DNA of 64,000 bases from the IMG/VR virus record IMGVR_UViG_2744054962_000001. One strand, given 5' to 3'. The notes under the pieces were generated by a model. It made no database searches. It saw nothing but the letters and a program-made list of their open reading frames with translations, and was not told the DNA's origin. The stretch comes from a virus. Lineage: Duplodnaviria > Heunggongvirae > Uroviricota > Caudoviricetes. The position numbers and the translations under genes are program-made. This document shows, in pieces, positions 5,410-64,000 of this stretch; the first letter of the stretch is position 1; each line of letters begins with the position of its first letter.

Positions 5410-5445
5410 ATATAGACACAATCCCTCCTGATTTACACAAGCCCT

Positions 5446-5460
5446 AAAACAATTTGTTTT
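5446..5460. promoter_or_regulatory. Palindromic operator-like site AAAACAATTTGTTTT
   Basis: Perfect 15-bp palindrome; first copy of the repeated AAACAAnTTGTTT family. Confidence 0.5.
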
Positions 5461-5478
5461 CTACCTTTTGTTGATTGA

Positions 5479-5510
5479 GATAATAAGCCACATAAGAAAA
5501 CAAATTGTTT
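5479..5510 (+). promoter_or_regulatory. Early promoter/operator motif (GATAAT..ACA..GAAAACAAATTGTTT)
   Basis: Palindrome AAACAA-A-TTGTTT immediately upstream of RBS AGGAG and ATG 5516. Confidence 0.5.
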
Positions 5511-5515
5511 AGGAG

Positions 5516-5764
5516 ATGAAGATGTTTGGAACAGCAAAAGAAATCATCGAGAAACTGAAAAACTATCCAGAAGACGAACCCTTACTCATGGTTATGTGGC
5601 ACAAAGAAGATATTGCTGAAGTAAGGACAGATCTCACTGATGAACAATGCGTACAGGTGATGCAAAAAATCAGACAATGCCATAACGCTGATGTCGGCGT
5701 TAATTGGGAGGTTATATCAACTACGGCGAATGAGTTGTTTCCGAACGAGGTGGTAAAATGCTGA
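5516..5764 (+). CDS. Hypothetical early protein (82 aa)
   Basis: ORF with AGGAG RBS; start 5516 or 5522. Confidence 0.5.
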   Translation: MKMFGTAKEIIEKLKNYPEDEPLLMVMWHKEDIAEVRTDLTDEQCVQVMQKIRQCHNADVGVNWEVISTTANELFPNEVVKC

Positions 5765-5946
5765 AACTCACCAAATTGTATAAGACGACAGTTAGTAGCC
5801 CTACCCTCGTTACACAGCATGACTCTGAGTGTCTACCAAATATCTGTTTCGAGCACCATACGATCTCGGACTCAATTGGGTACAGAAACGGAGTATGGGG
5901 GAGTCAGGGGAGGGAAGAAAAGCTGCGTGATTACGGTGTCACATAG
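5758..5946 (+). CDS. Hypothetical small protein (62 aa)
   Basis: ATG overlaps upstream stop (ATGCTGA), suggesting translational coupling; no recognised domain. Confidence 0.3.
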   Translation: MLKLTKLYKTTVSSPTLVTQHDSECLPNICFEHHTISDSIGYRNGVWGSQGREEKLRDYGVT

Positions 5947-6058
5947 CAAACCATCAAGAACATTCGAAAGGTGCTCGATGTAGGATTTGATGCGGTACAA
6001 TTCCACCCTGACGCTGAAATAGACGATGGTCTGGAAAATTGGAAATTGTGAGGGATAA

Positions 6059-6457
6059 ATGAAATATGCACCATTGGCACTAATATTTTTTGTGCTTTCT
6101 GCTAATGCCACGCCAGTTGAAGAGCCTAACACTATCGTGTACCCACGATGCATGAAAATAGATCCGGAAACACACAAGCAATTACCTGGTTACAATATTG
6201 TTATGGATATAGGGAATAAATTTAAAATCGTTTCCCCAAATGGGAATTCGGTGATATCCATCTCGCTTGCCCAAAGTGAAAAAGATAGGAACATGTTCGA
6301 CGCCTCAGTCGGCGATGTTTACTTCTCTCGTTACCATGTTCAACCTGATGGGAACTTTCTATACTCAGCCTGGAGTGAAAAGGCGAAAGTTACAGTGCTG
6401 TGTAATGGTAAAAGCGGTGAGCGGCATTACGTTGACCCTATTCATTTCGAGAACTGA
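6059..6457 (+). CDS. Hypothetical exported protein with N-terminal signal peptide
   Basis: MKYAPLALIFFVLSANA-TPVEE signal-peptide-like N-terminus; GAGGG RBS. Confidence 0.6.
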   Translation: MKYAPLALIFFVLSANATPVEEPNTIVYPRCMKIDPETHKQLPGYNIVMDIGNKFKIVSPNGNSVISISLAQSEKDRNMFDASVGDVYFSRYHVQPDGNFLYSAWSEKAKVTVLCNGKSGERHYVDPIHFEN

Positions 6458-6589
6458 CTACACAAGTAAACAAATCAATCAGTTGATAATGGCGGTCACA
6501 ATTTGATTCTTTTCTATAAGAATCCGTTGATCGCCACTACTCCCCTTCCATACCTGCAATCACATCCTTAAATATCAATAAGTTATGGT

Positions 6590-12985: not shown

Positions 12986-13510
12986 TTAAAATGGAAGGAT
13001 TCGTTCAACCCAATCGAAGAAAACAAGTATTTTTCTGCCGTCTTCTAACTTAAGAGTGACCTGGCAAGCATCAACGCCTCTTGACACCCCTTCTATTTCA
13101 CGACCGTCTGTCATGTAGACCCTTATAGATTGGTCGTTTTGATAAGCCTTGCGACATATCGCAAAAAAGTCACGGCGTGATGGCTGATTGTCAACATAGT
13201 CTGGATGTATTGTTAGCCTACCTTTGAACTCGCGAGCAATGCCATCGATTACACCTGATTCAATTGTGCTAATGCGCTCAAGTGGGAGTCTTATACGATT
13301 TTCTTTATCATATGGAATCGGGCATAAATCTAGCTTATTGCGTGAAGGCATTGTCCCCTGAACGTACATGCAAAACACCTGACCGTCTTCAAGCGTGACT
13401 CTTACAGGAATGTTGTTCTTCCGCCAGAACATAAGTATGTTCTCAGCATGTTCGTAGTCTCGCGGCCAGACTTCAGCCGGTATGCCGTAGGTGATGTCCA
13501 ATGTTCTCAT
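12986..13510 (-). CDS. Hypothetical protein (174 aa), AT-rich island
   Basis: Stop overlaps upstream gene by 4 nt (coupled); no recognised motif. Confidence 0.55.
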   Translation of the reverse strand: MRTLDITYGIPAEVWPRDYEHAENILMFWRKNNIPVRVTLEDGQVFCMYVQGTMPSRNKLDLCPIPYDKENRIRLPLERISTIESGVIDGIAREFKGRLTIHPDYVDNQPSRRDFFAICRKAYQNDQSIRVYMTDGREIEGVSRGVDACQVTLKLEDGRKILVFFDWVERILPF

Positions 13511-14106
13511 TCTGATACTCTTAGAGGTGTTTTCAGCAACCCAAATTTAAATTCTTTGTTACCAACGACAAAGAAGGGAACCTCAACATAGATTTTTTTA
13601 TCGACGGATTTAGAGTTAGCTGTTTTCTGTATGTCACGAACGATACGTTTTGAGATATTTTCATCGATAAACAATACCTTTCCACTTGTATTCCCTTCAG
13701 CCTTGGCGTAAGTAACGATAGGCTCTTCATTGCCAACCCTAATGTTTACTTGGCAACCTGTTGTAGCCATTTCATCACAGTAAAGTGTGCCGTCTTGAAC
13801 TTCTAAAACAATTCCAGATGGCTTCATGGCTTCGTCAGAGCTTACATTAACGTTTTCTGGTACAGCGGTCCCGTTAATTTGCAACCGTAATCTTTCTTTT
13901 CCTCCATTAAGTATTGTTTCTTCTGCGTTGTCTGAGAATCTGAACCAAACTGGCTGATTCAGACCTCGTGATTTGTATTCTACTACGTCTTCGGAGGTAA
14001 ACATGCTGTACGTTTTTTGCATGTCATAGACGAAATCTGATAATGCGTTGGCGGAAAACGCCGGGAGGTATATACAAGCAAGGAGTAACGAAAGTTTCAT
14101 TTTCAT
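13507..14106 (-). CDS. Hypothetical exported protein (signal peptide), AT-rich island
   Basis: Track start 14121 is TTG; ATG 14106 gives MKMKLSLLLACIYLPAFSANA, a signal-peptide-like N-terminus. Confidence 0.5.
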   Translation of the reverse strand: MKMKLSLLLACIYLPAFSANALSDFVYDMQKTYSMFTSEDVVEYKSRGLNQPVWFRFSDNAEETILNGGKERLRLQINGTAVPENVNVSSDEAMKPSGIVLEVQDGTLYCDEMATTGCQVNIRVGNEEPIVTYAKAEGNTSGKVLFIDENISKRIVRDIQKTANSKSVDKKIYVEVPFFVVGNKEFKFGLLKTPLRVSE

Positions 14107-14121
14107 ATCATGATAATCCAA

Positions 14122-14610
14122 TTATTTAACATCACACTTTCTAAGTTTTTCTATTTGTTCTAATTTTTCATGATCATCATTTAGATTTCCTTCGACTATC
14201 TCCGTTTCAAGTTTGCTGATTAGCATGTTAAGTGCGTTGTAGTTATTGCATTTTACTTTGTAGGCGTAGTATGACCTTGTCCCTGGTTTTTGTACACCCA
14301 TATCATTAAAGTTAGAGCTTAAAGTATAACCTTCAAGTTCAACCCCTTTTATTGTAGGAAGAATTATATTTAATGGTTCTAATTTAAATGGGTAGATATA
14401 AATATGTGATATGAAGTACTCTTCTGAAGAGATTTTCTTCATGTCTTTTGTGATTGAAACTGAATATTTACGGTTCCGAGTGATATAAAATTTTGTACAT
14501 TTGTACGGCTCTAAGTTGAATAGATAATATTTTTCTTTAAAAAGAACATCTTTTCCATGTGATATTTTATGTCGTAAAGAGTTAATTATTTTGTTTATAG
14601 AAATACTCAT
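14122..14610 (-). CDS. Hypothetical protein (162 aa), strongly AT-rich
   Basis: K/N/I/Y-rich composition; abuts downstream gene. Confidence 0.5.
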   Translation of the reverse strand: MSISINKIINSLRHKISHGKDVLFKEKYYLFNLEPYKCTKFYITRNRKYSVSITKDMKKISSEEYFISHIYIYPFKLEPLNIILPTIKGVELEGYTLSSNFNDMGVQKPGTRSYYAYKVKCNNYNALNMLISKLETEIVEGNLNDDHEKLEQIEKLRKCDVK

Positions 14611-14720
14611 CTACAGTATCCGACCTTAGTTATCAATTGAAAAGCCTACAAATATCGTTCAGCCAATCAAGAAATTTTTTCAGCCGGAGGTGTGTGCTTC
14701 AAAAAATGTGATGAATGTCA

Positions 14721-15668: not shown

Positions 15669-17228
15669 CTAATCTCGTTTCAGAACTCCAAAATCGAATG
15701 CGCCATCAATAGGCAATACACCTTCTGCAAAGCCAGGTGTGGTGTCGATGATGTGTTTTCGCTCATAAGAGTGAGACAACAGGTATTTGTTGCTAATGTC
15801 AATGAAATCAGTGATAAAACACACGTTTGCCTGATTCTTCTTGGCTCGTAAGCCACGACCGACACGCTGTCTCATTTCAACTTCTGCTTTCCCACCACCA
15901 GCAAGAATGACCGCACCAACGCTTGGCACATCAACACCAACATCCAGAATAGTCGAGCCTATTAAAACATCTATTTCACCAGACGCTAAACTGTTCAGCT
16001 TTGCTTGCCTTGTCGACTGGTTCGATTCCCCATAAATGAAGTCAACTCTAAGGCCGGACTCTTTCATCATTTCCATCAGGATTTGCCCGTGGCGTTTAAG
16101 ACGAACCAGAGTCATACAATTGAGAGAATGTTGCTTATAGAGCAATGCTTCGCGAACAATGGCCTCATTACGTCCCAAATTATACACGATCCCCAACTGA
16201 TAAGCCTTTTGGTAGGCTGTGCTCATACCTACTCTAAAATTAAGGTGTTTGTTGGCAAGTTCCGCCTTGATTCTGACCTCGTCTGGCTTGTAAGCAACTT
16301 TATGATAAAGGAAGTACGGTTTTGCCAGAATGCCTCGATCAATCAGGTACTTTTCTGTGACTTTAATTTCAATTCGACCGGCCACAGCCATCAGACGCAT
16401 GTTGGCTTCTGTAGAATCCTTCATGAACGGCGTGGCCGTAAGCGCCAGACGATAGTCTGCGTTCACACATAATCTGGCAATGTCATAGAAATTAGAGCCT
16501 GAAGACTCATGCGCTTCTTCCAGAATAAGCAGAGACACACTTGAAAGGAAGCGTTTCACTAGCTCCCGACGTTTGAGGTGGTAGCTCTTTTTATCTGGTG
16601 TTGCATCGCGTGGTGGTTCTTCAAGGAAACTTGCCAGAGTTTGAACTGTAGCGACGTTGATATGTCGTGATACCTGGAACTCACCCGAGCCAATGACTCC
16701 AACCTTTTGGTCTTTTAACCACGGTTCGCCATTTTTGGCGCGGTAGTCGATGGATCTCTGGAAGTTTTCGGCCATTTGAAACATCAGAACAGAGCGGGTT
16801 GTTAAAAATAATGTCATTCGACCGATACGTGCAGCTGCTTTGCAGGCAACATTAGATTTCCCGCCACCAGTAGCGATCTGCGCAATCATCATTCCCTCTC
16901 GAACCAGTGTTTCCACAGTCTGATCCTGATACGCATAATCAGGATTGTATGGGAATGGGTTAACCGCCGGATTTGGTTTTCCAAGCGCCGGGGCTTTGTC
17001 TTTGCGGATATGAACACATTTGATGCCCGCCTTGTTCAAGTTCGCCGCTACAGGCTTGGCAAAGCCTGCAGGGAACGAGTTTTTACTCCAGTTGAACATT
17101 GTGCTTGTGCCCTTCCAGTCGCCAGTCTCGACTTCGTAGCTCAACATCTGTTGCACCAGTTGCTTTACCTTGTCATCTGCGCCAGAAATAAGCGCATTAA
17201 CTGCGTTAGATACAATCCGAACAGTCAT
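15669..17228 (-). CDS. Superfamily 2 (DEAD/DEAH-type) DNA helicase
   Basis: Walker A ATGGGKS, motif II LEEAHE, motif III TATP, motif VI QRVGRGLR. Confidence 0.85.
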   Translation of the reverse strand: MTVRIVSNAVNALISGADDKVKQLVQQMLSYEVETGDWKGTSTMFNWSKNSFPAGFAKPVAANLNKAGIKCVHIRKDKAPALGKPNPAVNPFPYNPDYAYQDQTVETLVREGMMIAQIATGGGKSNVACKAAARIGRMTLFLTTRSVLMFQMAENFQRSIDYRAKNGEPWLKDQKVGVIGSGEFQVSRHINVATVQTLASFLEEPPRDATPDKKSYHLKRRELVKRFLSSVSLLILEEAHESSGSNFYDIARLCVNADYRLALTATPFMKDSTEANMRLMAVAGRIEIKVTEKYLIDRGILAKPYFLYHKVAYKPDEVRIKAELANKHLNFRVGMSTAYQKAYQLGIVYNLGRNEAIVREALLYKQHSLNCMTLVRLKRHGQILMEMMKESGLRVDFIYGESNQSTRQAKLNSLASGEIDVLIGSTILDVGVDVPSVGAVILAGGGKAEVEMRQRVGRGLRAKKNQANVCFITDFIDISNKYLLSHSYERKHIIDTTPGFAEGVLPIDGAFDFGVLKRD

Positions 17229-17270
17229 AAACCTCTTTCCTTAGTGCCTTTTGTATGTTATTTGGCTATT

Positions 17271-17293
17271 ATAATAAGTAAGTGATTACTTAG
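17271..17293. promoter_or_regulatory. ATAAGTA-family motif (palindromic TAAGTAA-GTGA-TTACTTA) in divergent promoter region
   Basis: Between helicase (-) and ParB-like operon (+); member of repeated ATAAGTA motif family. Confidence 0.5.
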
Positions 17294-17310
17294 TGGATTG
17301 TAGCAATAAA

Positions 17311-17991
17311 ATGGATGTAAAAATCACGATTTTGCAGGTTGATGTTGCCAACCTTCGCCCGAATACCTGGAACACCAATTCGGTTGGTGCGCAGAATTTT
17401 GAAAAACTGAAAGGTTCTATCGAAAAATTGGGCTTTTTTAAGCCAATTTTGGCTCGTGAACTTGAAGATGGATTTTTTGAAATCCTCGGCGGCGAACATC
17501 GCTGGCGTGCCGCTATTGAGCAAGGAATTTCAACGGTTCCAGTGCTTTCTGTGGGCAAAATTAGCGATGTCGTAGCTAAACAGATGTCACTGGTGGACAA
17601 CGAGCGATACGGTGAAGACGACCAAATCGCATTGCAACGCTTCATTGAAGAAATTCAGTCAGAACTTGACTATCAACTGTCTGAAATCGCCCCGTATGAC
17701 GACGAAATCTCGATGGTTTTAGCAAAAGAGGCGGCAATCGACCTTGAAGCACTGGAGGCGTTGTCTCGTGGTAGTGATGAGCCTGTCGATACCGACAAAC
17801 GAGAGAAAACCGAACGTGTGGGGGCGGAACATCAGACCATGCGCTTCAAAGTAACTTTCGATGCGTCAGATCGCGTTGCAGAAACCATAAAAAACATCAT
17901 CAAAGAGCAGGCTATTAACACCGGTAATGAAATGGAGAACGCTGGTGAGGCTCTGGTGTGGCTGGTCGACTACTACAAGGAGCGTATGTAA
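17311..17991 (+). CDS. ParB-like nuclease-domain protein 1
   Basis: ParB/Srx-type N-terminal domain (GGEHRWRAA); ATG 17311 preferred over track GTG 17293. Confidence 0.65.
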   Translation: MDVKITILQVDVANLRPNTWNTNSVGAQNFEKLKGSIEKLGFFKPILARELEDGFFEILGGEHRWRAAIEQGISTVPVLSVGKISDVVAKQMSLVDNERYGEDDQIALQRFIEEIQSELDYQLSEIAPYDDEISMVLAKEAAIDLEALEALSRGSDEPVDTDKREKTERVGAEHQTMRFKVTFDASDRVAETIKNIIKEQAINTGNEMENAGEALVWLVDYYKERM

Positions 17992-18659
17992 TGACCAAAA
18001 AGTTTGAAATCGTATATCGCGACCCGGCAGATCTTATTCCCTATGAGATGAATGCCAAAAAGCATGATGAACAGCAGATCCGAGATCTAGCCGCAGCCAT
18101 TAAAAAGCGCGGATTTGACCAGCCAATTACGGTCGATAAGAACGACGTAATTATTACTGGCCACGGCCGCCGTGAGGCTGCAATTTTTGCTGGACTTGAG
18201 CGCGTACCGGTTATTGTTCGCGATGATCTCAGTGATGACGAGGTTCGTGCGAAGCGCCTTGAAGATAACCGACTTGCCAGCATTGATTACGATGCAATTA
18301 AGCTACAGAAAGAGCTTGAGTCGCTTGTTCTGGACGATATCGAGGTTTTCGGCTTTGAAGAGCGTGAGTTGAATGTTCTCGTTGGCAGCATGACAGAAGA
18401 AATGGACACCGACTCGCTAGTTATCGATCTTGGCGAAGAAACTAAACGACAGAAGGATGAACACACCGAGATCAGTCGTGAAGTTGCAGCGGAAGAAGTA
18501 CGTGTTGTCGACGTATTGGGCTTTAAAACGCTTCCTGCTGGCTCTGCCATTGTTGTTGGTGATTTGCTTGCCCACATGGAAGAAATGACGGGAGAAAGCG
18601 GGGTAGACGCATTTGTGGCATATGCGGAGAAGATCTCTTCCGGGGAGATGGCTGCATGA
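17958..18659 (+). CDS. ParB-like nuclease-domain protein 2
   Basis: Second ParB-type N-terminal domain (ITGHGRREAA); overlaps upstream gene by 34 nt; acidic C-terminal half. Confidence 0.6.
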   Translation: MAGRLLQGAYVMTKKFEIVYRDPADLIPYEMNAKKHDEQQIRDLAAAIKKRGFDQPITVDKNDVIITGHGRREAAIFAGLERVPVIVRDDLSDDEVRAKRLEDNRLASIDYDAIKLQKELESLVLDDIEVFGFEERELNVLVGSMTEEMDTDSLVIDLGEETKRQKDEHTEISREVAAEEVRVVDVLGFKTLPAGSAIVVGDLLAHMEEMTGESGVDAFVAYAEKISSGEMAA

Positions 18660-22570: not shown

Positions 22571-22583
22571 GTAAGTAATTATC
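22566..22583 (+). promoter_or_regulatory. ATAAGTA-family promoter-like motif
   Basis: GATAGGTAAGTAATTATC, 14 nt upstream of portal ATG. Confidence 0.45.
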
Positions 22584-22596
22584 TAAGGTTATTCAA

Positions 22597-49945: not shown

Positions 49946-49978
49946 TGTGGGCTGTCTAGCCCACATTATTTTAATTAA
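49946..49978 (+). terminator. Rho-independent terminator
   Basis: TAATGTGGGC-TGTC-TAGCCCACATTA followed by TTTTAATT. Confidence 0.6.
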
Positions 49979-49993
49979 AGTGGAGTGATAATT

Positions 49994-50746: not shown

Positions 50747-51161
50747 CCTTGACGCCATCACTAAGTTCTTAAATCAGTGTTTTGATCTACTTTTGCTCAA
50801 GCAGCCTTTAAGAACTGTTTTCGGAATACTGATTGGTTTCATTATTTTTGTTTTTGTTTACACGTTTAGGTTTGCGATAGCTCAAGATTTTTATGAAATA
50901 GATGGTGTGCATTACGCTGCATGTTTCGTCATCGGTGTTTTAGTTGTTCACACAAGAACATTTTTTGACGTTATCAAGGGCACCGCAGTTGATGAAGAAA
51001 TAGATAGTATGATCAGAGTTATTACGAAGCAGCCACACCTATCTAACCATCAAAAAAACATAATGATTGCTGAAATACTTCAAAAAGAAATTGCAGCCAT
51101 AAGTCAAAAGAGATTGGATAAAGTTGCACAAGAAATAACGGAGAAAAAGACAACTGATTAA
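50739..51161 (+). CDS. Hypothetical membrane protein (140 aa), AT-rich
   Basis: Start overlaps upstream stop; two predicted TM helices. Confidence 0.5.
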   Translation: MFDLDAITKFLNQCFDLLLLKQPLRTVFGILIGFIIFVFVYTFRFAIAQDFYEIDGVHYAACFVIGVLVVHTRTFFDVIKGTAVDEEIDSMIRVITKQPHLSNHQKNIMIAEILQKEIAAISQKRLDKVAQEITEKKTTD

Positions 51162-51169
51162 TTTAATTA

Positions 51170-52125: not shown

Positions 52126-53466
52126 ATGACCGAACTTTGCCATACAGGACGCGGGCTGTCCGAAGAGTTTGATGAAGATTTCCAGAACAGACTGACGGCA
52201 TATTTTTGTCGTGATCACGAGTTTCTTACTCGTGCGGGAGATCTGGTTGTGCCTAGCCAATTTGCCAATGCGGCCAATGCCATATTGGTTAATATGGTTT
52301 CGGGCTATTACCGTATGTACAAGAGCGCGCCCTCTTCATCTGCAATTCTGGATATGCTTAAGCGTGCGAAACGCGATAAGACTATCCGTGAGGAACTATT
52401 CGCCGATGTTGTTGCTGCGTTTAAGCGCATCCTTGCAGAAAAATTGTCCGATACCTCGTACATGGTTGACCAGGTATCAACCTTCGCAAAAAGCGTAGCG
52501 TTTGATGATGCTCTGATTAAGGCTGCTGAACTGAAAGAGAAAGGCGACTTTCAGGGGGCGATGGCAATCATGGCCAAGGTTCAGCAGATTGGATCGAACG
52601 AAGCGACCGGAATCTATGACTACTACACCTCCGCAAGTGAGCGATTGAAAGCGCGTGAATATGAGGCTTCAGAGGAGTATGTACCAAACAGTATTACAAC
52701 TGGACTCCCTCTTCTCGATAGGTTGCTGTACCAAAAAGGCTGGGCAAAGCGCGAAATGGTGCTCTTCATGGGGTTCGCTAAATCCGGTAAATCGACCGCA
52801 ATGGGTGAGTTTTCCATAAACGCAACGCTTGCTGGCTACAATGTTCTGTATCTCTCGCTGGAGGTTCACACCACCATTTTATCCGACCGTTTTGATGCAA
52901 GATTGTCGGAGACGGAAATGTCCAAGCTGGTGGAACGGCGCGATGAGGTTCATCGTAAGTTGGCAGAGTTGGGAGCCACGAAGGGGATTGGTAGTTTGTG
53001 GGTTGTTGAGCGTCCGTCAGGAAGTATGTCACCGGCAGACCTGGATCGTATGCTTAACAGCATGAAAGCCAATGGCATGGTGCCTGACATGGTTGTTGTC
53101 GACTACGCAGATTTGATGCGTGCCAGTTATGACCTTCGTGATGATCGCGCCAACATTCGTAGTATCTACACCGATTTACGTGCTCTTTATGACAAGCATA
53201 ACGTTGCTGGTATCACGGCGTCGCAAACAAACCGTGAAGGTGGCGCGTCAGAAGTTGCCACAATGATGCACGCTGCCGACAACATCGAAAAAGTACGTAT
53301 TGCTGACCTGGTAATAACGATCAACAAAACCGAAGAAGAAGAAGCGAAAGGAGAGGCTCGTCTCTACTTTGCTGGTTCGCGTAACCAGCAGGGAGGGATC
53401 AGCATTCGCGTTAAACAAAACCTCGAACAAATGCGCTTCATTGAGCGAATCTTAGACGTTACCTAA
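52126..53466 (+). CDS. DnaB-family replicative helicase
   Basis: Walker A GFAKSGKST, Walker B VVVDYADL, SQTNR motif; 446 aa. Confidence 0.8.
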   Translation: MTELCHTGRGLSEEFDEDFQNRLTAYFCRDHEFLTRAGDLVVPSQFANAANAILVNMVSGYYRMYKSAPSSSAILDMLKRAKRDKTIREELFADVVAAFKRILAEKLSDTSYMVDQVSTFAKSVAFDDALIKAAELKEKGDFQGAMAIMAKVQQIGSNEATGIYDYYTSASERLKAREYEASEEYVPNSITTGLPLLDRLLYQKGWAKREMVLFMGFAKSGKSTAMGEFSINATLAGYNVLYLSLEVHTTILSDRFDARLSETEMSKLVERRDEVHRKLAELGATKGIGSLWVVERPSGSMSPADLDRMLNSMKANGMVPDMVVVDYADLMRASYDLRDDRANIRSIYTDLRALYDKHNVAGITASQTNREGGASEVATMMHAADNIEKVRIADLVITINKTEEEEAKGEARLYFAGSRNQQGGISIRVKQNLEQMRFIERILDVT

Positions 53467-53473: not shown

Positions 53474-53494
53474 GCGTGGAGAACACCTCCACGC
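53474..53494 (+). terminator. Hairpin after helicase gene
   Basis: GCGTGGAG-AACAC-CTCCACGC; lies inside the N-terminal extension of track ORF 53476. Confidence 0.5.
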
Positions 53495-53547
53495 TTGATT
53501 CATTGGTGAAACAACTTTTCTTTTGCCAAACCACAAAAGAAAAACAC

Positions 53548-54729
53548 ATGAGCCTTTATGTTATATCAACATTTAGGTTGGTCACAATATTGCCTGTTAA
53601 AAGTGGAATTATCGTGAGCGAGCTGAAAGAGCTAATTACCGAATTAGATTTTGAACAATGGTTGGATACTGAAGGTATCGTTTATCGACGTGGAGGCGTG
53701 AGTACTCGCGGTCGTGAAGTGAATATCAAGGAGTGTCCGGTATGCGGCAGCTCCAACTGGAAGGTATATTTCAATCTGACCAGTGGCGTCGGTAAATGCT
53801 TCGCTGGTGATCATCCCGAAGAGATTCAGTTCAATAAGCTGGTCTTCCTCAAGCACTACAGCGGTAAATCACGACGACAGTTCGAGGAATATGTGCAGAA
53901 CGCTCTTCTTTCCCAGGGGTGGGCACCAAAGAAAGAAGAGATAGTGCTTGCAAGCACAGTCGAGTTAGAGGGACCAGTTGCACTCCCTCGTCATTACGAT
54001 CTTCCTATAGATGGCCATCTTCCAGACTATCTGGTTGAACGAAATATATCGCCTGAAATGGCAAAGTATTTTGACCTACGATACTGCGTCGAAGGCAAGC
54101 ACGCTTATGTAGATCCGTATACAGATCAGGTTAAAGGACAGATTTTCGATATGCGAATACTGATACCGGTTTACGATCTGGATGGGGTAATGAAGACATT
54201 TCAAGGACGAGACATTACCGGTACAGCAGAACGCCGCTACCTCTTCCCTATGCAGCTGCCGGCGTCGGGTAAGTTTCTCTACAACGGCCACAACGCAGTC
54301 GGGAAACAAACAGTCGTTGTGTGTGAAGGGGCATTTGACGTAATGGGCGTGAAGCGAGCCATCTTCGACGAAAAGACGCTGAGGGATTATGTAGAGCCAA
54401 TTGGCACGTTCGGGATGCACTTGTCCGGAAATATGAATGAGGACGCTGAAGATCAGTTGGGCGCGTTCCTGACGCTCAAGGCGCGTGGATTACGCAACGT
54501 CATCATGATGTGGGATAGCGAGAAGCAAGCGATCCGCAACACCATGTCGGCGGCCAAACGCCTCACCAGCATCGGACTAAATGTCAAAGTGGCCTGTCTG
54601 GGCGAAGAAGGTCTCGACCCCGGCGACGCGACGCCAGAGCAGATCCTCAAAGCCTATTATCGTGCCAAGCCTTACTCCAAACAGCTGGAGTTAAAATGCA
54701 AAGTGCTCGGTATCAAGTCACTCGTGTAG
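53548..54729 (+). CDS. DNA primase (zinc-ribbon plus TOPRIM)
   Basis: Zn ribbon CPVCGSSNWKVYFNLTSGVGKCF; TOPRIM-like VCEGAFD and MWDSE; start uncertain (53476 GTG or 53548 ATG). Confidence 0.75.
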   Translation: MSLYVISTFRLVTILPVKSGIIVSELKELITELDFEQWLDTEGIVYRRGGVSTRGREVNIKECPVCGSSNWKVYFNLTSGVGKCFAGDHPEEIQFNKLVFLKHYSGKSRRQFEEYVQNALLSQGWAPKKEEIVLASTVELEGPVALPRHYDLPIDGHLPDYLVERNISPEMAKYFDLRYCVEGKHAYVDPYTDQVKGQIFDMRILIPVYDLDGVMKTFQGRDITGTAERRYLFPMQLPASGKFLYNGHNAVGKQTVVVCEGAFDVMGVKRAIFDEKTLRDYVEPIGTFGMHLSGNMNEDAEDQLGAFLTLKARGLRNVIMMWDSEKQAIRNTMSAAKRLTSIGLNVKVACLGEEGLDPGDATPEQILKAYYRAKPYSKQLELKCKVLGIKSLV

Positions 54730-54730
54730 T

Positions 54731-55828
54731 TTAAGTTGTGGGAGACAGACGGTTCAGGACAAACGCTGCGATATTATTTAGTGCTATATTTAGCAAACTT
54801 GCATCATATGTTTGGTCGTTATCCTTAGGTTTAAAATTGCTGATACTGACTGTCTCACTGTGCTCATTTTCATAGAAACGTTTACTGCTTGAATCTAGGC
54901 GTTTGAGGACGTAAATTTGCCCAAATTCAATCCACTCACCTTCACCATTGAGTCCGCTCCCTGTTTTGACTGAGATGAAGTACTTTGCCAGCTTGGTTGT
55001 AATGCAGTCTTCATTTTTTTCTATGCAAACCTTAATGCCGGCGGCTTTCAAACTACGATAAATGCTGTTTGGATATGCCCCACTATAGATTTCGCTGCTT
55101 TCAATGATAATGACGTCGTATTCTTCCTTTGGCTCAATAGATAAAGCTTCAGGCTCCAAATCATCCTTGTGAAAAATAAATCCTAAAAGACGCTCAAGTT
55201 CATCTGTTAATTTGAACATGGGGTTCGCTTGGATCTCGCCAGCCCTGTCTTCGTAGACGAGCCCCGAGGTTATGAGCTTATTTAGCGATCTCAGAGCCAT
55301 TCCACTTTTTTGTGATGTGAGGCTAACTTGGGCTAATACAGTTGATTTATAGCCTTTTATTGGCGAGCTTGTTGTGATGTAAAGTTTGCGCGCATATTCA
55401 ATATCAAAGCAGGTTAACCCACTCAGTATGTGGATAAAAAATAGTTTTTCATCGTCGTTAAGGCTGCTGCGGGCTAGGCTTACCGTCAAGCGAATGTAGT
55501 ATTCTGTTTTCTTGTCTTCATCATCAAGCACGAGCTTTTTGACTAACGCCGAAAAGTGTTCTCTTGAGATATCGACCTCATCGTCGCAAATTTCACCAAT
55601 GCCCATAATGTAACGGTTGAATCGATCACGACAAGTCGTCGCATTTATCTCTGAGAACAACGTGAACATTTTTTCCGCTGCCTCAATATGAGGTCCAACA
55701 AGCGGTATAGATTTGGCAAACGCCAAACCAGTTTCTTTCAATACCTTCCTGTGTTGCATCACGTTTTTGGACAACGTTGTCATAGACCTAAGCCTTGTGT
55801 GTTTAACGTATGAGTTAAGTGAAATCAT
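54731..55828 (-). CDS. Hypothetical protein (365 aa), AT-rich, convergent with primase
   Basis: Opposite orientation to flanking replication genes; stop 2 nt from primase stop; alternative start ATG 55783. Confidence 0.55.
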   Translation of the reverse strand: MISLNSYVKHTRLRSMTTLSKNVMQHRKVLKETGLAFAKSIPLVGPHIEAAEKMFTLFSEINATTCRDRFNRYIMGIGEICDDEVDISREHFSALVKKLVLDDEDKKTEYYIRLTVSLARSSLNDDEKLFFIHILSGLTCFDIEYARKLYITTSSPIKGYKSTVLAQVSLTSQKSGMALRSLNKLITSGLVYEDRAGEIQANPMFKLTDELERLLGFIFHKDDLEPEALSIEPKEEYDVIIIESSEIYSGAYPNSIYRSLKAAGIKVCIEKNEDCITTKLAKYFISVKTGSGLNGEGEWIEFGQIYVLKRLDSSSKRFYENEHSETVSISNFKPKDNDQTYDASLLNIALNNIAAFVLNRLSPTT

Positions 55829-55900
55829 ATAGAAGTGACCTGACAGCTACAACTGGACAAGATTAAGAGCATTTTTTATAAACGAAAATAAACGCCTACA

Positions 55901-55925
55901 TTGATAAGTAGATACATACTTATAT
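55901..55925 (+). promoter_or_regulatory. ATAAGTA-family motif (ATAAGTA..TACTTAT inverted repeat)
   Basis: TTGATAAGTAGATACATACTTATAT upstream of 55967. Confidence 0.45.
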
Positions 55926-55966
55926 TTCTGTAAGAATATGCTCGACGAAGGAATTGAGGAACCTTT

Positions 55967-56761
55967 ATGAAAGCAGATATTCAGAAGTCCGTTACCGAAA
56001 TCATCGACAAATCAGGCGTAGAAATTGATACAGAAGAGCGCCAGAAGATTATCGATGAGGCGATCCAGACTGCGCTGGAGCACATCGCCACGTCTGTGAG
56101 CACCGCACCTCTTTCGGAAGGCTCGAAATACATGCGGGTCTGGGTTCGTTTTGGGGAGTCCCCGGAGCTGCCTGGTGTTAAACAGAAACGCGCGGCACTC
56201 GTGGCGTTCACTCGCAAAATGAAGGACGCAACGGTCGAAGTACGCGCCGGTGCATGGTACGACGGTCGCGTTGTCTACACCAATCAGGCAGTGTGCGATG
56301 AAGGTGAACGGTTTGAGGAAATTGTCGACGCGACTCTTCGCGCGATCAAAGGCAGGGCTGGCGTAGAGGATGATCCTTCTATCGCGGCGTTCCTGAGCAT
56401 TGTCGAACTGCCTGAAGTTACCGAACGCGTTACAGATCTGACAACCCCACCTGGTTTGCTGGAGTTGGTGGTCAGTGGCGATACCAAAAAAGCCGTTGAG
56501 CGCATTCGTGAGGTGGAATACGGCATCATCTGCGATATGTGCCGCAGCGACTTAGACCTGGTGCGCATCATTGTCGACGCGGGTCAGACATGTGACGGTG
56601 TGCTCGCCAGTTTTGCAGGGCAGGTGGCACGCCTGGCCAACGAGCTGCCGATGATTAAACAGGAGGCAAAATCCTACGCCGTCCACCATGCCAACGATTT
56701 ACTGGAACCATACCGGTTCGAAGCCGCTCAGGACAAAATGACTGGCTGGGCTACCTGGTAA
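55967..56761 (+). CDS. Hypothetical protein (264 aa)
   Basis: GAGGA RBS; strong terminator follows. Confidence 0.55.
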   Translation: MKADIQKSVTEIIDKSGVEIDTEERQKIIDEAIQTALEHIATSVSTAPLSEGSKYMRVWVRFGESPELPGVKQKRAALVAFTRKMKDATVEVRAGAWYDGRVVYTNQAVCDEGERFEEIVDATLRAIKGRAGVEDDPSIAAFLSIVELPEVTERVTDLTTPPGLLELVVSGDTKKAVERIREVEYGIICDMCRSDLDLVRIIVDAGQTCDGVLASFAGQVARLANELPMIKQEAKSYAVHHANDLLEPYRFEAAQDKMTGWATW

Positions 56762-57341: not shown

Positions 57342-58664
57342 ATGGAAAAACTGATCGCCCTAAAGCACAAGCTGGATGCCATAAAAACGATGGGAACCAA
57401 CGCCAAAAAAGAGGCGCTGGCCAACCTTGATAAATTTGAGCAGAGCATGGTCTCGCTAATGCTCAACCCATTCATTCGATTCGGTGTGAAGAAGTACAAA
57501 GTGGTCGAGCCACTCGATACTTCCGTACCCATCGACCAGAAGGTAGTCGAGCTGCTGGAGAAGCTGGCGGCGCGCGAACTGACCGGGAACGCGGCCATTA
57601 CTGCTGTTGAGTCTATCGTGGCGTCAATGTGCGCCGATGGGCAGGACGTGTTCCGTCGTTTCCTCTTAAAAGACCCAAAAGCGGGTGTTGGGATTAGCCT
57701 ATGCAACAAGGTTTTTGAAAATCCCATTCCGAAATTCGAGGTGCAGCTGGCGTCACCGTATAAAGAAAAAGGCGACAAATACCCCTTCAAGCCAAACCCT
57801 AAAGCAAAATGGCCTATGATTGGCAGCCTTAAGCTCGATGGTTTGCGAGTAATTTGCGAGGTTATTGTTGACGAAGAAGAGGTTAACTTCCTTTCTCGTA
57901 CTGGTAATCCAATCACGTCTCTCGATCACCTAAAGCCAGCCATGCTCGAATTAGGCAAACTTTCAGGCCACAAACACATCTTCTTCGATGGTGAAGGAAC
58001 TGCCGGTTCATTTAACCAGTCCGTATCTGCATTGCGCAAAAAGAACGTGCAGGCAATTGGCGCTATTTATCATGTTTTCGACTTCTTCCTACCGGAATGG
58101 CGGGCACAGGCTAAATCCAAAGAGTATGCAAAGACAGGTATGAAGCTGAAAGAGCGCCTGGCTATTCTCGTGGCGTTGTTCAAAAACGATCGCAGTGAAG
58201 GCTACGCACAAGACATTCACCTGCATCCGTTCTATATCATCCATAGCCACGAAGACTTCATCGAACGCTTCATGAAACGCCTGGACGATAACGAAGAAGG
58301 GGAGATGGGCAAAGATCCGAACTCTGTTTACGAGTTTAAACGTACCCGCAGCTGGTGGAAGTTAAAAGACGAAGATTCAGAAGATGGTGAAATTATCGAT
58401 TTTGAGCCGGGCGATCCGGACTCTGGTTTTGCCAACACGCTTGGAAAAATTGTTATTCGTCTTGAAAACGGCGTCATCGTTCGTGCGAGCGGTATTAAGC
58501 ATAAATATCTGGACGAGATCTGGAACAACAAAGAGAAGTACCGTGGTCGTATTGTTGAGGTTCATTGTCACGAGAAAACACTGGATGGCAGCTTACGCCA
58601 CCCCCGACTGAAATGGCCGCGTTGCTTACGCGATACAGAAGATCGAATCGGAGATAAAGAATGA
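57342..58664 (+). CDS. ATP-dependent DNA ligase
   Basis: Adenylation motif I KLDGLR; motif III-like FFDGEG; GGAGG RBS. Confidence 0.8.
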   Translation: MEKLIALKHKLDAIKTMGTNAKKEALANLDKFEQSMVSLMLNPFIRFGVKKYKVVEPLDTSVPIDQKVVELLEKLAARELTGNAAITAVESIVASMCADGQDVFRRFLLKDPKAGVGISLCNKVFENPIPKFEVQLASPYKEKGDKYPFKPNPKAKWPMIGSLKLDGLRVICEVIVDEEEVNFLSRTGNPITSLDHLKPAMLELGKLSGHKHIFFDGEGTAGSFNQSVSALRKKNVQAIGAIYHVFDFFLPEWRAQAKSKEYAKTGMKLKERLAILVALFKNDRSEGYAQDIHLHPFYIIHSHEDFIERFMKRLDDNEEGEMGKDPNSVYEFKRTRSWWKLKDEDSEDGEIIDFEPGDPDSGFANTLGKIVIRLENGVIVRASGIKHKYLDEIWNNKEKYRGRIVEVHCHEKTLDGSLRHPRLKWPRCLRDTEDRIGDKE

Positions 58665-60253: not shown

Positions 60254-60328
60254 GATGGTGTAGCTCAGCGGTAGAGCAGTTGGCTGTTAACCAACTGGTC
60301 GGTGGTTCGAATCCACCCACCATCGCCA
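60254..60328 (+). tRNA. tRNA-Asn (anticodon GTT)
   Basis: Cloverleaf: acceptor GATGGTG/CACCATC, D-arm GCTCAGCGGTAGAGC, anticodon loop CTGTTAA, T-loop TTCGAAT, encoded CCA. Confidence 0.85.
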
Positions 60329-60330
60329 AT

Positions 60331-60406
60331 GCCGGTTTAGCTCAGTTGGTAGAGCACCTGCCTTGTAAGCAGGATGTCAGCGGTTCGAATCCGTTAACCG
60401 GCACCA
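60331..60406 (+). tRNA. tRNA-Thr (anticodon TGT)
   Basis: Acceptor GCCGGTT/AACCGGC, anticodon stem CCTGC/GCAGG with loop CTTGTAA, T-loop TTCGAAT, encoded CCA. Confidence 0.85.
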
Positions 60407-60414
60407 ACACAATT

Positions 60415-60501
60415 GGAGAGTAGAGAGCATGGTGCTCAAGCGGTCTTGAAAGCCGTCCCATTGCGCAAGCGATGATGGTTCGATTCCATTACTCTCCGCC
60501 A
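60415..60501 (+). tRNA. tRNA-Ser (anticodon TGA), class II with long variable arm
   Basis: Acceptor GGAGAGT/ACTCTCC, anticodon loop CTTGAAA, variable arm with TTGCGCAA hairpin, T-loop TTCGATT, discriminator G plus CCA; anticodon stem has two G-U pairs. Confidence 0.65.
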
Positions 60502-60722: not shown

Positions 60723-61073
60723 ATGACCAGCAAAGAGAACACACCACTAAAAGTCACCTCTGAACACATTGAACAACTCATTCAAAGTGAACATTATTTC
60801 ACTGCATATGATGCCAGCCACGGGGATAACTTCATCTCTGTTTACAATTCAAAAACAGATATCGACAAAGGTCATGAGTCGTTAAAACTCTTAACGTTCT
60901 GCGTTATGGTTCTCAAAAATGGATATACCGTAACGGGAAAATCTGCGTGCGTAAGACCAGAAATCTTCAACTTTGATGTTGGTCGCGAGTACGCTCGAAA
61001 AGATGCTATCGATCAAATCTGGCCCCTGGAAGGCTATCTCCTGAAGCAAAAGTGGCATGAGGCAAAGCAATGA
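60723..61073 (+). CDS. Hypothetical protein (116 aa)
   Basis: ORF; ATGA overlap with downstream glutaredoxin-like gene. Confidence 0.5.
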   Translation: MTSKENTPLKVTSEHIEQLIQSEHYFTAYDASHGDNFISVYNSKTDIDKGHESLKLLTFCVMVLKNGYTVTGKSACVRPEIFNFDVGREYARKDAIDQIWPLEGYLLKQKWHEAKQ

Positions 61074-61315
61074 CGATCACTATCTACGGACGAGATAACT
61101 GCTCATACTGCAAACGTGCGGTCGAGCTGGCGAAGCAACTAAAGGGACATGGCTACGGTGATTATGAGTACATCGACATCACCACTGCCGGTATCGATAA
61201 GGAAAAACTTAGCGAAATTGTTGGAAAACCGGTAGAGACTATCCCCCAGGTGCTGATCGATGGCCAGCCGATTGGCGGATACACAGAGATGGCATCTTTC
61301 GTAAGTTTCTTATAA
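61070..61315 (+). CDS. Glutaredoxin-like protein (NrdH/Grx fold)
   Basis: 81 aa; redox motif CSYC near N-terminus; thioredoxin-fold length. Confidence 0.7.
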   Translation: MTITIYGRDNCSYCKRAVELAKQLKGHGYGDYEYIDITTAGIDKEKLSEIVGKPVETIPQVLIDGQPIGGYTEMASFVSFL

Positions 61316-61352
61316 GTAAAGGCCACATCTTTGTATATATAGTACATATAAC

Positions 61353-61377
61353 AAAAAAGGCCCATATGGGCCTTTTT
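61353..61377. terminator. Bidirectional rho-independent terminator
   Basis: AAAAAA-GGCCC-ATAT-GGGCC-TTTTT. Confidence 0.7.
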
Positions 61378-61499
61378 CATAACTTCTAGCTAATCACTAC
61401 AGAGGCTTAAAGACCACTTCACCCTTGCGTTCAGCTTCAGCTTTAGCAGTCATGAATCGTTTGATCATTTCGACTTTGCTAGCATGGATAGTTTTAAAA

Positions 61500-62054
61500 T
61501 CAATCTTCCCTTTGTTTTGGGTAGTGTTGTGTTCGTATCGCATAGGAAGCTCCGTCATTTAAATAAGTTAGGCCACGCTCTTGTGTAAATCTCTTCACAT
61601 ATCTCTTGTATGTGGCCATCAGTTCTTCGCGTTCTGCCGCAAAGAATAAAATCTGTATGCCTTCATTGTCGGCAACTTTGAGCATTAAGTCAACTAAAGT
61701 ACCGTAAAGGTATTGAAGTTCACCTAAAGTAAGATTAAAAGACCCTTCGGGTTTGGCAAATACGTTAATTGGCTCTTCCGCTCCAAGAGCAGCATTCTGG
61801 AGCTGTTCTTGCTGCCTGTCAAGTTGAATCATGTCCACAAAACTAACGACAGATACACACAACCCATAAACATCAGCACCTAACATATTATGCATAGTTT
61901 CTGCGGCAACAGGATCTAAAGAAGGAGGGCAAAAGACTAAACGGTATCTAGCCTTACGAGCTTCATTGCCAGAGAAAACAAAGTCTATATCTAAATATGA
62001 CAGATCACCCGGCAATGAAGCCAAACCAGGTGTAACCAACTTATGCAAGTGCAT
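61500..62054 (-). CDS. Hypothetical protein (184 aa)
   Basis: ORF divergent from integrase; no motif recognised. Confidence 0.5.
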   Translation of the reverse strand: MHLHKLVTPGLASLPGDLSYLDIDFVFSGNEARKARYRLVFCPPSLDPVAAETMHNMLGADVYGLCVSVVSFVDMIQLDRQQEQLQNAALGAEEPINVFAKPEGSFNLTLGELQYLYGTLVDLMLKVADNEGIQILFFAAEREELMATYKRYVKRFTQERGLTYLNDGASYAIRTQHYPKQRED

Positions 62055-62275
62055 CTGTCTCGAATCCCTCTTTATTAGTATAAGTTGTCTTATTGTACCC
62101 TACCAAACGTTTATATGCATTGTTATGTATTATTTTGATTTTCAATATTACCTCCTAGAACGAAGGGTAGATTTCAAAAAACGCATCCTTAATGATTCCA
62201 TACCTACTATGTATGGAATCATTGCCGAAAATGAGTTACTTTTACTCTTGATCCTATAAGAATCTATGCCTAATA

Positions 62276-62295
62276 TACTGTTTACTTATACAGTA
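62276..62295. promoter_or_regulatory. LexA-box-like site TACTGTTTACTTATACAGTA
   Basis: Fits TACTGT-N8-ACAGTA; 26 nt upstream of integrase ATG, in divergent promoter region. Confidence 0.5.
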
Positions 62296-62321
62296 CATCG
62301 GCGTAACTCGGTGATTGTCAT

Positions 62322-63425
62322 ATGAAAAATAGCTTTGACAGAGCACGCGCTGCGGAGAACACCTCAAAAGAGGCGATTGAGTATCTCGAAAGAGCATCTC
62401 AAATGCAGGCCGTTATGATCTCCCAGGTCAGCAATGACATGAGATTCTCGGACGCATTCATGTTATTCACTCGCTTATCTCTGCTGATAACCAGACGTCG
62501 GCCAGAGATCGCTGTTCATTGTATTTTGATACATGTTTTGCCGCACATTGCCGATGTAAAAGTAAGTGACATTAATAGGTTCATGGTGAACCAACTGGTC
62601 AACCCACTAATACTGGATGGCAAAATTGTTATGGGCCGCCGCGTTTTCTCTCTGATGAAGCAGTTCCTTAGCTGGTGCGCCTTCCAGGGGATGATAGACG
62701 TGTCACCGTTAAACGATATGTCACTTAACAAAGTTGCCGGTGGCGCAAAGCCCACACCTCGCGAGCGGAAGCTGACCGACGCAGAGGTATGGGTGTTCTG
62801 GAATATATGGGACTACTTCAATGTGTGTGCTGGTACAAAATGGGCGGCCAGGCTATGTCTTGTATCCGCAAGACGACCTGACGAAGTACTGCGGGCTAAA
62901 AAAAGTGAGTTCAATCTTAAGCGTGGGGTTTGGAATCAAGGCAAGAGGAACAAATCTGCCCGTGAGCATTCTCTGCCTTTAAGCTCATTAATGCGCACTT
63001 GTATTGAAGAGTTGTTCGAATATGGTAAAGACAGCCAGTGGCTCGTGCCTTCGAATAAAAAAATCGGGAAAGACCTTCCTATGTCTAAAGTGGCAATAGC
63101 CCAGGCATTACGTCGTATTCTGGAACGACCAGAACTGATGGAGCTTGAGCCATTTACACCCCGAGATTTGCGCCGTACTGCGCGTAGTTACTTCCCAGCA
63201 TTAGGCATAAGCCAGGAGGTATCACGTAAAATCATGAACCACAGTCTTGAGGGGATAGATCGGGTCTACGACCGGCACGATTATATGGACGAGATGCGAG
63301 ACGCCTTAGAAAGTTTCTCGACGTACATCGCATCAATCGTAGAGCAACCGGATTTAGACGAAATTGACCACAAATTCAAGGGAGATCGTCTATCAACAGA
63401 GCTTATTCGTGTAAATTTTTCATAG
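62322..63425 (+). CDS. int: Tyrosine recombinase / phage integrase
   Basis: C-terminal catalytic region with conserved Arg, RDLRRT and VYDRHDY tyrosine segment; N-terminal ~60 aa atypical, start uncertain. Confidence 0.7.
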   Translation: MKNSFDRARAAENTSKEAIEYLERASQMQAVMISQVSNDMRFSDAFMLFTRLSLLITRRRPEIAVHCILIHVLPHIADVKVSDINRFMVNQLVNPLILDGKIVMGRRVFSLMKQFLSWCAFQGMIDVSPLNDMSLNKVAGGAKPTPRERKLTDAEVWVFWNIWDYFNVCAGTKWAARLCLVSARRPDEVLRAKKSEFNLKRGVWNQGKRNKSAREHSLPLSSLMRTCIEELFEYGKDSQWLVPSNKKIGKDLPMSKVAIAQALRRILERPELMELEPFTPRDLRRTARSYFPALGISQEVSRKIMNHSLEGIDRVYDRHDYMDEMRDALESFSTYIASIVEQPDLDEIDHKFKGDRLSTELIRVNFS

Positions 63426-63806
63426 AGACTTTATGGCCTCAACAACCTTTTGTGATGCGCCTTTCTCTTTACCGAATCGCTCGTTATATGCAGCAAGAAC
63501 CTGTTTTTCGTCCTCGTTAAGAGGAGCAGTGCCTTCTTTGTATAAAAATGCTGCGAGTTCGGGTTGGCGTTCTTCCAGCACCATCATCATAAGACGACTT
63601 GGCTCAATACCCAGTGCCAGCGCCAGCGGACGAACCTTATCGATAGGCAAAGGAATTTTGCCGCTTTTAATTAAAGAAAGGTTGTTGGCGTTTTTATACC
63701 CAATTGTTTTGGCTATCTGGGCCTGGCTCATAGGTGAGGATTCAATCAACCCTGCGATAAAAGCAGCGTAGCGACTTTCTATAAATTCAATCTTGTTATC
63801 AGACAT
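63420..63806 (-). CDS. XRE-family HTH transcriptional regulator (repressor-like)
   Basis: HTH segment SQAQIAKTIGYKNANNLSLIKSG; convergent with integrase, overlapping by 6 nt. Confidence 0.7.
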   Translation of the reverse strand: MSDNKIEFIESRYAAFIAGLIESSPMSQAQIAKTIGYKNANNLSLIKSGKIPLPIDKVRPLALALGIEPSRLMMMVLEERQPELAAFLYKEGTAPLNEDEKQVLAAYNERFGKEKGASQKVVEAIKSL

Positions 63807-64000
63807 GGTTACAACCTTTGCGCGTTCAATTCTCTCTGGTAAGTGCTTACCGATATTACATCAAAGGTTATGGTTGTAAAGCTATTATCATTTTTTTCGA
63901 TAGGCACTTAAAAGACCGGTTAAAGGCCATTGCACGGAGAAAAATTAGCCAAAAATAGGTAAGAAAATCAACTTGCATATGATATGAATGTATTCAGTAT

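Follow-up and report, generated by a model that had tools for sequence, protein, structure and literature searches.

The SSU5 supergroup of phage-plasmids and the pSLy3 group have been defined previously (PMC7969092; bioRxiv 10.1101/2025.09.12.675607). For Cyrano, the phage-plasmid also known as pLF82 of Escherichia coli LF82, about 5.5 copies per cell, DNase-protected genomes above background, siphovirus particles of the size of SSU5 and a 39-fold induction by ciprofloxacin were reported (PMC9928086). The presence of apbC on such phage-plasmids has been described (PMC12429562), and phage-plasmid-borne metG is already published for pWPMR2 of Shigella sonnei: as cited in PMC12452169 and bioRxiv 10.1101/2025.09.12.675607, Tam et al. 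(medRxiv 2024) report that, owing to metG on pWPMR2, some of the cells are predisposed to become resistant, and the same work is cited in PMC12452169 for promotion of antimicrobial survival by phage-plasmid-borne metG. The DNA stretch studied here, IMG/VR record IMGVR_UViG_2744054962_000001 (64,000 nucleotides, hereafter the window), carries metG and apbC together with genes of a tailed phage. A prediction made from its letters alone had read it as a phage genome that begins next to the metG terminator, and had left the lifestyle ambiguous between an integrated prophage, a phage-plasmid or both. As judged by comparison with deposited sequences, the window is almost certainly a 64-kb stretch, roughly 58%, of a ~106-114 kb phage-plasmid of the SSU5 supergroup and pSLy3 group, in which pLF82/phage Cyrano, pECOH89 and pWPMR2 are, with hardly any doubt, its companions.

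Identity of the window element

The window was scanned for open reading frames (ORFs), base composition and tRNAs and was then compared with complete E. coli genomes, phage records and plasmids. Positions 1-6500, which include metG and the supposed junction, are 99.8% identical over their full length to plasmid p88COLEC-2 and 99.1% identical to the circular plasmid pEC16-2 (111,789 bp), and the records that cover most of this segment are all plasmid replicons of about 95-161 kb. Positions 5400-30000 are 94-98% identical to the Escherichia phage records CMS-2020a, PhiR41_1 and Cyrano and ~79% identical to Klebsiella SSU5-like phages, and positions 39001-64000 are 96-97% identical to ~106-114 kb plasmids such as pMTY12368_pLF82. 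Four relatives cover all but ~6 kb of the window (about 90%) at 85% identity or more, with the gene order kept; Cyrano alone covers 84% at a mean identity of 96.8%, in an alignment that crosses the arbitrary linear ends of the Cyrano record. Membership was gauged by shared gene repertoire and synteny, a weighted gene repertoire relatedness (wGRR)-type criterion (Pfeifer et al. 2021), and both place the window in the pSLy3/SSU5 group. The window element is an ordinary member of a well-sampled family, near-identical to deposited sequences and already known, and what may still be of interest is solely the disagreement in ancestry between its cargo genes metG and apbC.

The part of the virion module that runs from the small terminase gene to the tape measure gene (20682-35689) was found at 264 places in 242 of the 5,426 complete E. 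coli genomes. Every one of these places is on a plasmid, and none is chromosomal. The plasmid state of the lysogens therefore holds for the relatives, and it is from them that we infer the same state for the window molecule. Related elements have also been deposited as phage records, one of which lists E. coli K-12 MG1655 as host. Among the lifestyles considered in the original prediction, the phage-plasmid was the right one, and the premise of an integrated prophage is refuted; plasmid-maintenance genes were correctly regarded there as unusual for an integrated prophage. The question of an ambiguous lifestyle dissolves, as it arose from taking a plasmid-borne metG for the chromosome.

Going by its close relatives, the element would be a temperate siphovirus that does not integrate in lysogeny and probably persists as a low-copy circular plasmid, by means of the ParA operon, the TacA/GNAT addiction module and a RepA initiator whose gene lies beyond the window. 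Virions would be formed on induction by DNA damage, and lytic replication would use the element's own helicase, primase and ligase together with the dnaE, epsilon-like exonuclease and nucleotide-metabolism genes that the relatives carry. The metG and apbC genes are a bacterial pair that was captured and is kept as cargo, giving the host a second copy of methionyl-tRNA synthetase (MetRS). About 4% of the complete E. coli genomes contain phage-plasmids of the pSLy3/SSU5 type, which spread extended-spectrum beta-lactamase genes and dfrA51.

Several points weigh against this assignment. The window includes neither a RepA gene nor a circular junction, and the production of virions by this variant is a prediction from its relatives. 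The gene for the theta homologue of DNA polymerase III (Pol III) is frameshifted, which is a minor decay. The role given below to the recombinase is deduced by analogy, and the element may integrate into the chromosome in other hosts. A few relatives of 198-240 kb look like cointegrates, and the window copy could likewise sit in a larger replicon. Plasmids with the same virion module or metG at about twice the usual size are NZ_CP182204.1 (240 kb), NZ_CP139126.1 (218 kb) and NZ_CP146657.1 (198 kb), which suggests that these oversized plasmids are cointegrates of the phage-plasmid with another plasmid.

The supposed left junction

Position 5410 had been taken as the start of the element, without a duplicated attachment (att) core, and metG as its chromosomal flank. 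Positions 1-5400 are also phage-plasmid DNA, however, collinear with circular plasmids, and backbone genes continue to the left of metG. In pEC16-2, p88COLEC-2 and Cyrano, the region left of apbC-metG carries the S24 peptidase and Pol III theta genes, terB, rnhA and more of the backbone, and further in this direction the relatives have genes for a Dam-type methylase and an epsilon-like exonuclease, dfrA51, a thymidylate synthase gene and nrdAB. At the position of hsdM in the window, relatives on circular plasmids have hsdM-hsdS-hsdR, and an Ea22-type block is found there in Cyrano. On the E. coli chromosome, apbC adjoins yehE and yehD (K-12) and metG adjoins a DUF4132 gene; the window matches the chromosome solely within 2075-5363, namely the metG and apbC coding sequences and their shared promoter region. 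Since metG is cargo and the backbone continues to its left, there is no junction or att site to seek at 5410. There is no prophage/chromosome junction at this position, which could at most mark where captured cargo ends inside a larger mobile element, and the right end, as known from the relatives, effectively shows an element of a different kind. For genome scans this means that the housekeeping genes metG or apbC alone are no marker of chromosomal DNA.

Two smaller statements about this place were borne out. No tRNA lies near 5410, the sole tRNAs of the window being those listed in Table 1, and a terminator-like hairpin was read 3' of the metG stop codon; this hairpin differs from the terminator of K-12 metG. 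Several relatives part from the window at 5515 and replace 5516-6482, a segment that is absent from Cyrano. In p88COLEC-2, an IS1A (27547-28244 of locus L003, corresponding to about 5765-6058 of the window) lies between the DUF1380 gene and the ORF for 132 amino acids (aa), and the window is without it. The remnant of the theta gene is an ORF at 1387-1545 that matches Pfam DNA_pol3_theta (8e-15), with the C-terminal ORF alone open. This gene is annotated as 'frameshifted' in p88COLEC-2 too and is intact in pEC16-2.

The recombinase and alternative explanations

The original prediction had a single integrase at the right edge, ~57 kb from the left end. A tyrosine recombinase is indeed present there, but not at such a distance from a left end: on the circular replicon it lies in the immunity region and adjoins a putative repressor gene. 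The region 62322-63806 with these two genes is 98.6-98.8% identical in the relatives. Homologues of the recombinase at 80% identity or more were found in nine phage records only, and the next best matches, integrases of integrative phages, are less than 30% identical; as judged by sequence, the recombinase is lineage-specific. Near it, no att-like repeat, tRNA-derived or other, was found. A tRNA-derived att core, as would be expected of an islet inserted into the element's own tRNA cluster, was considered and rejected, as the sole match was a 15-nt chance resemblance of the integrase ORF to the anticodon arm of tRNA-Asn. Cre of phage P1 is used for multimer resolution rather than integration (PMC7969092). 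By analogy, the recombinase is probably a Cre/Xer-like multimer resolvase or another element-internal recombinase and not a chromosomal integrase. As a rarer alternative, it may allow occasional chromosomal integration in hosts outside the sampled set.

An integrated prophage beside chromosomal metG, with its left end ~40 bp after the terminator and its integrase far to the right, would agree with the metG-apbC pair of every E. coli chromosome, with the tyrosine recombinase and with a chromosomal homology that stops right after the metG stop codon, but it would not explain why the genes left of apbC are those for S24 peptidase, theta and HsdM, as in circular plasmids, and not yehE/yehD. Moreover, metG and apbC of the window are 94% and 83% identical to the chromosome as compared with 95-99.9% to the plasmid copies, the virion module was never chromosomal (0/264), and an att-like repeat was not found. 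This explanation is refuted for the relatives and has next to no probability for the window. A very improbable variant is a dual lifestyle, with the plasmid state alternating with integrase-driven chromosomal integration. Phage-plasmids may switch states by recombinases (PMC7969092), and the recombinase of the window is full-length and adjoins a repressor-like gene; however, the confinement of its relatives to nine phage records, its low identity (<30%) to integrases of integrative phages, the lack of an attP-like repeat or tRNA-derived core near it and the count of chromosomal copies, 0 in 5,426 complete E. coli genomes, all speak against such switching.

If the element is a plasmid, it could still be a defective, 'domesticated' one, that is, a non-mobilizable cryptic plasmid of phage-like appearance that forms no infectious virions. 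Throughout 20682-47629, the ORFs for structure, packaging and lysis are all open and of full length, and the segment in common with Cyrano (20549-40842) shows about 98% identity to this phage, whose virions are produced and ciprofloxacin-inducible (PMC9928086). Together with the deposition of related elements as phage records, including the one with K-12 MG1655 as host, this makes a defective plasmid unlikely. In favour of a defective plasmid are the frameshift in the theta gene, the assignment of these plasmids to the non-mobilizable type by MOB-typing, the fact that virions of the exact variant are a prediction, and a report on a Klebsiella plasmid for which an intact SSU5-like prophage had been predicted but which the study characterised otherwise (PMC8969562).

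The cargo genes metG and apbC

In comparison with K-12, the metG gene of the window shows 94.1% nucleotide identity, a synonymous divergence (dS) of 0.29 and a ratio of nonsynonymous to synonymous divergence (omega) of 0.023, with nine conservative changes in MetRS (S112T, S151A, S275T, V276T, S319T, V442I, R538K, A554T and A668T). The corresponding values for apbC and chromosomal apbC of E. coli are 82.7%, 1.30 and 0.028. Both genes are under strong purifying selection (omega 0.02-0.03). A metG-apbC pair is found on every E. coli chromosome, with an identity to the window segment of only about 90-91%. The plasmid type of the pair was counted 223 times on plasmids of the complete E. coli genomes, with 216 records at 95-99.9% identity; hence, most E. 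coli members of the group carry the pair. In PLSDB, it is present on 208 plasmids, mostly of 100-120 kb, 203 of which are typed as non-mobilizable. The metG gene of the window is intact, distinct from the chromosomal allele and located on an SSU5-type phage-plasmid, and so represents an auxiliary metG.

The distances of the two genes to the chromosome are discordant, as follows from a calibration of dS: between E. coli and Escherichia sp. E1V33, dS is 0.28 for metG and 0.58 for apbC, and between E. coli and Citrobacter or Salmonella it is 0.74-0.91 and 1.18-1.34, respectively. The metG gene of the window is at a within-Escherichia distance, whereas apbC is as remote as that of another genus. 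A sliding-window comparison located the switch in divergence near the metG start codon, with apbC and the intergenic region on the distant side. A comparison of the window with Cyrano gave 24 differing sites in metG and a single one in apbC. The 24 sites are scattered: at 12 Cyrano agrees with K-12, at eight the window agrees with K-12, and at four neither does, so no decisive recombination tract could be discerned in metG from these three sequences. Among the listed matches to GTDB species representatives, a listing without several Escherichia species, no genome surpassed an identity of about 94% in metG or 83% in apbC, and no donor was found.

Among the phage-plasmid copies, the variability of metG is far greater than that of apbC, which is compatible with exchange of metG between plasmid and chromosome. 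One scenario, put forward tentatively as possible though rather doubtful, is that the pair was captured long ago and that metG then underwent repeated gene conversion between phage-plasmid and host chromosome. If true, a mobile essential gene would act as a generator of variant MetRS alleles, possibly exporting alleles back to chromosomes.

Phage records of Pseudomonas (92 kb) and Acinetobacter (134-139 kb) also contain full-length MetRS genes, with 57-66% identity to that of the window (OQ572407.1, CAKLQF020000011.1 and CAKLQH020000007.1). Since Pseudomonas and Acinetobacter phage records encode MetRS, auxiliary metG occurs on large phage-like elements beyond enterobacteria.

Other features of the window

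The features of the window are collected in Table 1.

Table 1. Positions of genes and other features in the 64-kb window.
Feature	Position	Strand	Evidence and remarks
hsdM, N-terminal part, type I restriction-modification	1-933	-	Pfam HsdM_N, N6_Mtase; truncated by left edge of window; accessory backbone
Pol III theta homologue, frameshifted	1292-1545	+	In-frame stops in translation of 1292-1543
S24 peptidase	1644-2033	+	Pfam Peptidase_S24; HumD-like in annotation of some relatives
apbC (mrp), Fe-S cluster carrier ATPase	2071-3171	-	Pfam NUBPL/ParA, 2.7e-102; divergent from metG
metG, full-length 677-aa methionyl-tRNA synthetase	3329-5362	+	Pfam tRNA-synt_1g, 4.6e-166; anticodon-binding and tRNA_bind domains
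Terminator-like hairpin (about 5383-5406) and variable backbone segment	5363-6482	+	Sequence reading, comparison with relatives
Gene annotated DUF1380 (within the preceding segment)	5516-5764	+	
132-aa ORF (within the same segment)	6059-6457	+	
FljA-like protein, 'repressor of phase-1 flagellin' family	12986-13510	-	Pfam Flag1_repress, 9e-81
UvsW-like DEAD-box helicase	15669-17228	-	Pfam
Two ParB_N-domain proteins	17293-18659	+	Pfam
ABC-type ATPase	18656-19321	+	Pfam
Siphovirus virion and lysis module, complete	20682-47629	+	Pfam; annotation of 98%-identical Cyrano region
GNAT acetyltransferase toxin	47798-48319	-	Pfam GNAT families
TacA ribbon-helix-helix (RHH) antitoxin	48327-48635	-	Pfam TacA1, 8.6e-26
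Small ParA/MipZ-type ATPase	48915-49583	+	Pfam MipZ, AAA_31, CbiA
Overlapping 119-aa ParA partner, putative partition protein	49583-49942	+	Position in operon
DnaB-like helicase	52126-53466	+	Pfam
Primase, DnaG/Toprim	53476-54729	+	Weak Pfam match
Extra 365-aa ORF	54731-55828	-	Among genes with PHROG families of unknown function
ATP-dependent DNA ligase	57342-58664	+	Pfam
tRNA cluster Asn(GTT), Thr(TGT), Ser(TGA)	60254-60501	+	ARAGORN, Rfam; common to relatives
Variable accessory spot: Gp49-family protein, GrxA glutaredoxin, 184-aa ORF	60723-62054		Pfam Phage_gp49_66, Glutaredoxin
184-aa ORF of unknown function	61500-62054	-	phrog_28788
367-aa tyrosine recombinase ('integrase')	62322-63425	+	Pfam Phage_integrase
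Convergent helix-turn-helix protein, putative repressor of Cyrano annotators	63420-63806	-	Weak Pfam HTH_19; overlaps recombinase gene

The virion module includes genes for the small and large terminase, portal, major capsid protein, head-tail connectors and a tape measure protein of 1532 aa, followed by those for tail tip proteins M/L/K/I/J, tail fibres, holin, endolysin and spanin. Terminase, capsid, tape measure and tail-tip J proteins were recognised by Pfam, and holin, endolysin and spanin were assigned by homology with Cyrano. Upstream of the packaging genes, the block 15669-20208, which also encodes a 296-aa protein, has the same gene order in pEC16-2, p88COLEC-2 and Cyrano. The FljA-like protein, here on an E. 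coli phage-plasmid, is full-length.

The GNAT/RHH toxin-antitoxin pair noticed earlier was confirmed by Pfam as a type II system of the TacA/TacT (KacAT) type. As in TacA/TacT systems, the antitoxin gene is upstream of the toxin gene, 7 bp apart on the minus strand; the homologues CYRAN_26/27 of Cyrano are expressed in lysogeny (PMC9928086). The partition pair, described earlier as ParA/RHH, holds as to ParA, and the RHH fold of the partner found no match in Pfam or the Protein Data Bank (PDB). For this 119-aa protein, which has homologues in related elements of Salmonella Typhi, Klebsiella, Citrobacter and E. coli, a Pfam RHH match was not obtained even at E<=10, and neither a PDB sequence match nor a significant Foldseek hit against the PDB was found. 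An AlphaFold2 model of low confidence (pLDDT 63, 12-sequence alignment) predicts, for the monomer, a disordered basic tail and then two helices (48-60 and 70-84), an arrangement that would be compatible with RHH but is undiagnostic, and the pattern of the alignment would suit a strand-helix-helix fold. The annotation of this protein in Cyrano as 'RelE/ParE' was unsupported by the searches. No convincing centromere-like iterons were found around parA.

Pfam confirmed the helicase, primase and ligase of the replication block, the primase by a weak match. The remark that this block has no DNA polymerase is true within the window but is an edge artefact, since relatives (p88COLEC-2, pMTY12368_pLF82 and Cyrano) carry dnaE, encoding Pol III alpha, 4-5 kb past the integrase gene and so just outside the right edge. 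In p88COLEC-2, repA lies further beyond this edge, and the window is without it; Pol III epsilon-like exonuclease, theta and nucleotide-metabolism genes are also present in the relatives. In pMTY12368_pLF82 (locus L006, 38472-42784), dnaE is split, with an HNH endonuclease gene after dnaE and then a fragment annotated as partial, and p88COLEC-2 (locus L002, 4285-6624) has, near the 5'-3' exonuclease gene, a 2.3-kb ORF with the annotation of a LAGLIDADG homing endonuclease. It appears that replication genes of the SSU5-type family are colonised by selfish endonucleases.

Three patches, 13499-14641, 49947-51165 and 54718-56530, are absent at 85% identity or more from the four relatives compared, and the former two are in low-GC stretches (about 0.36-0.40). 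Over nearly their whole length, their ORFs align with PHROG families of unknown function, and no PADLOC model for defence systems matched in any of the three. These patches look like accessory hot spots; at 49947-51165, relatives have DUF2971 or GIY-YIG genes.

An Rfam scan of the window returned the three tRNAs only. Between them and the recombinase gene is an accessory spot, the contents of which vary among the relatives. By position and length, the counterpart of its 184-aa ORF in Cyrano is CYRAN_43. In the LF82 lysogen, no Cyrano gene is listed with a stronger expression than CYRAN_43, which reaches 723x the local background (PMC9928086).

Comparison with known systems

The element resembles phage P1 in being a low-copy plasmid prophage, and the role of its recombinase is proposed here by analogy with Cre. 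P1 likewise encodes functions for partition and addiction, a homologue of theta and an S24-type HumD protein. The virion modules are unrelated, that of the window being of the siphovirus and that of P1 of the myovirus type, and the partition, replication and toxin-antitoxin proteins differ as well.

With Salmonella phage SSU5, the window shares the structural part only, at about 81% identity, and SSU5 is absent among the phage records that encode MetRS. The pSLy3 group, including pECOH89 and p88COLEC-2, comprises circular non-mobilizable plasmids of enterobacteria of ~100-120 kb with an SSU5-like virion module (PMC7969092; PMC3999498). Plasmid pECOH89 has the same metG-apbC pair at 96.1% identity and additionally carries blaCTX-M-15. 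The S. sonnei element pWPMR2 is described (PMC12452169; bioRxiv 10.1101/2025.09.12.675607) as an SSU5-supergroup phage-plasmid with an auxiliary metG that is reported to promote antimicrobial survival, and a 108-kb S. sonnei plasmid carries metG-apbC at 97.1% identity. The clade of pWPMR2 is clade K and the broader pSLy3 clade is clade J, and the window may belong to either.

Cyrano (pLF82 of E. coli LF82; OV696614; PMC9928086) differs from the window in having an Ea22/Ead-type block instead of the type I restriction-modification genes, at about 40.8-46.2 kb, where the distal portion of tail-tip protein J and the tail fibres are encoded, and in the small patches 5516-6482, 13499-14641, 49947-51165 and 54718-56530. 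The two have in common the S24 peptidase-apbC-metG segment, the virion module, KacT and its antitoxin, ParA, the helicase-primase-ligase genes, the three tRNAs, the integrase, the repressor and the gene order.

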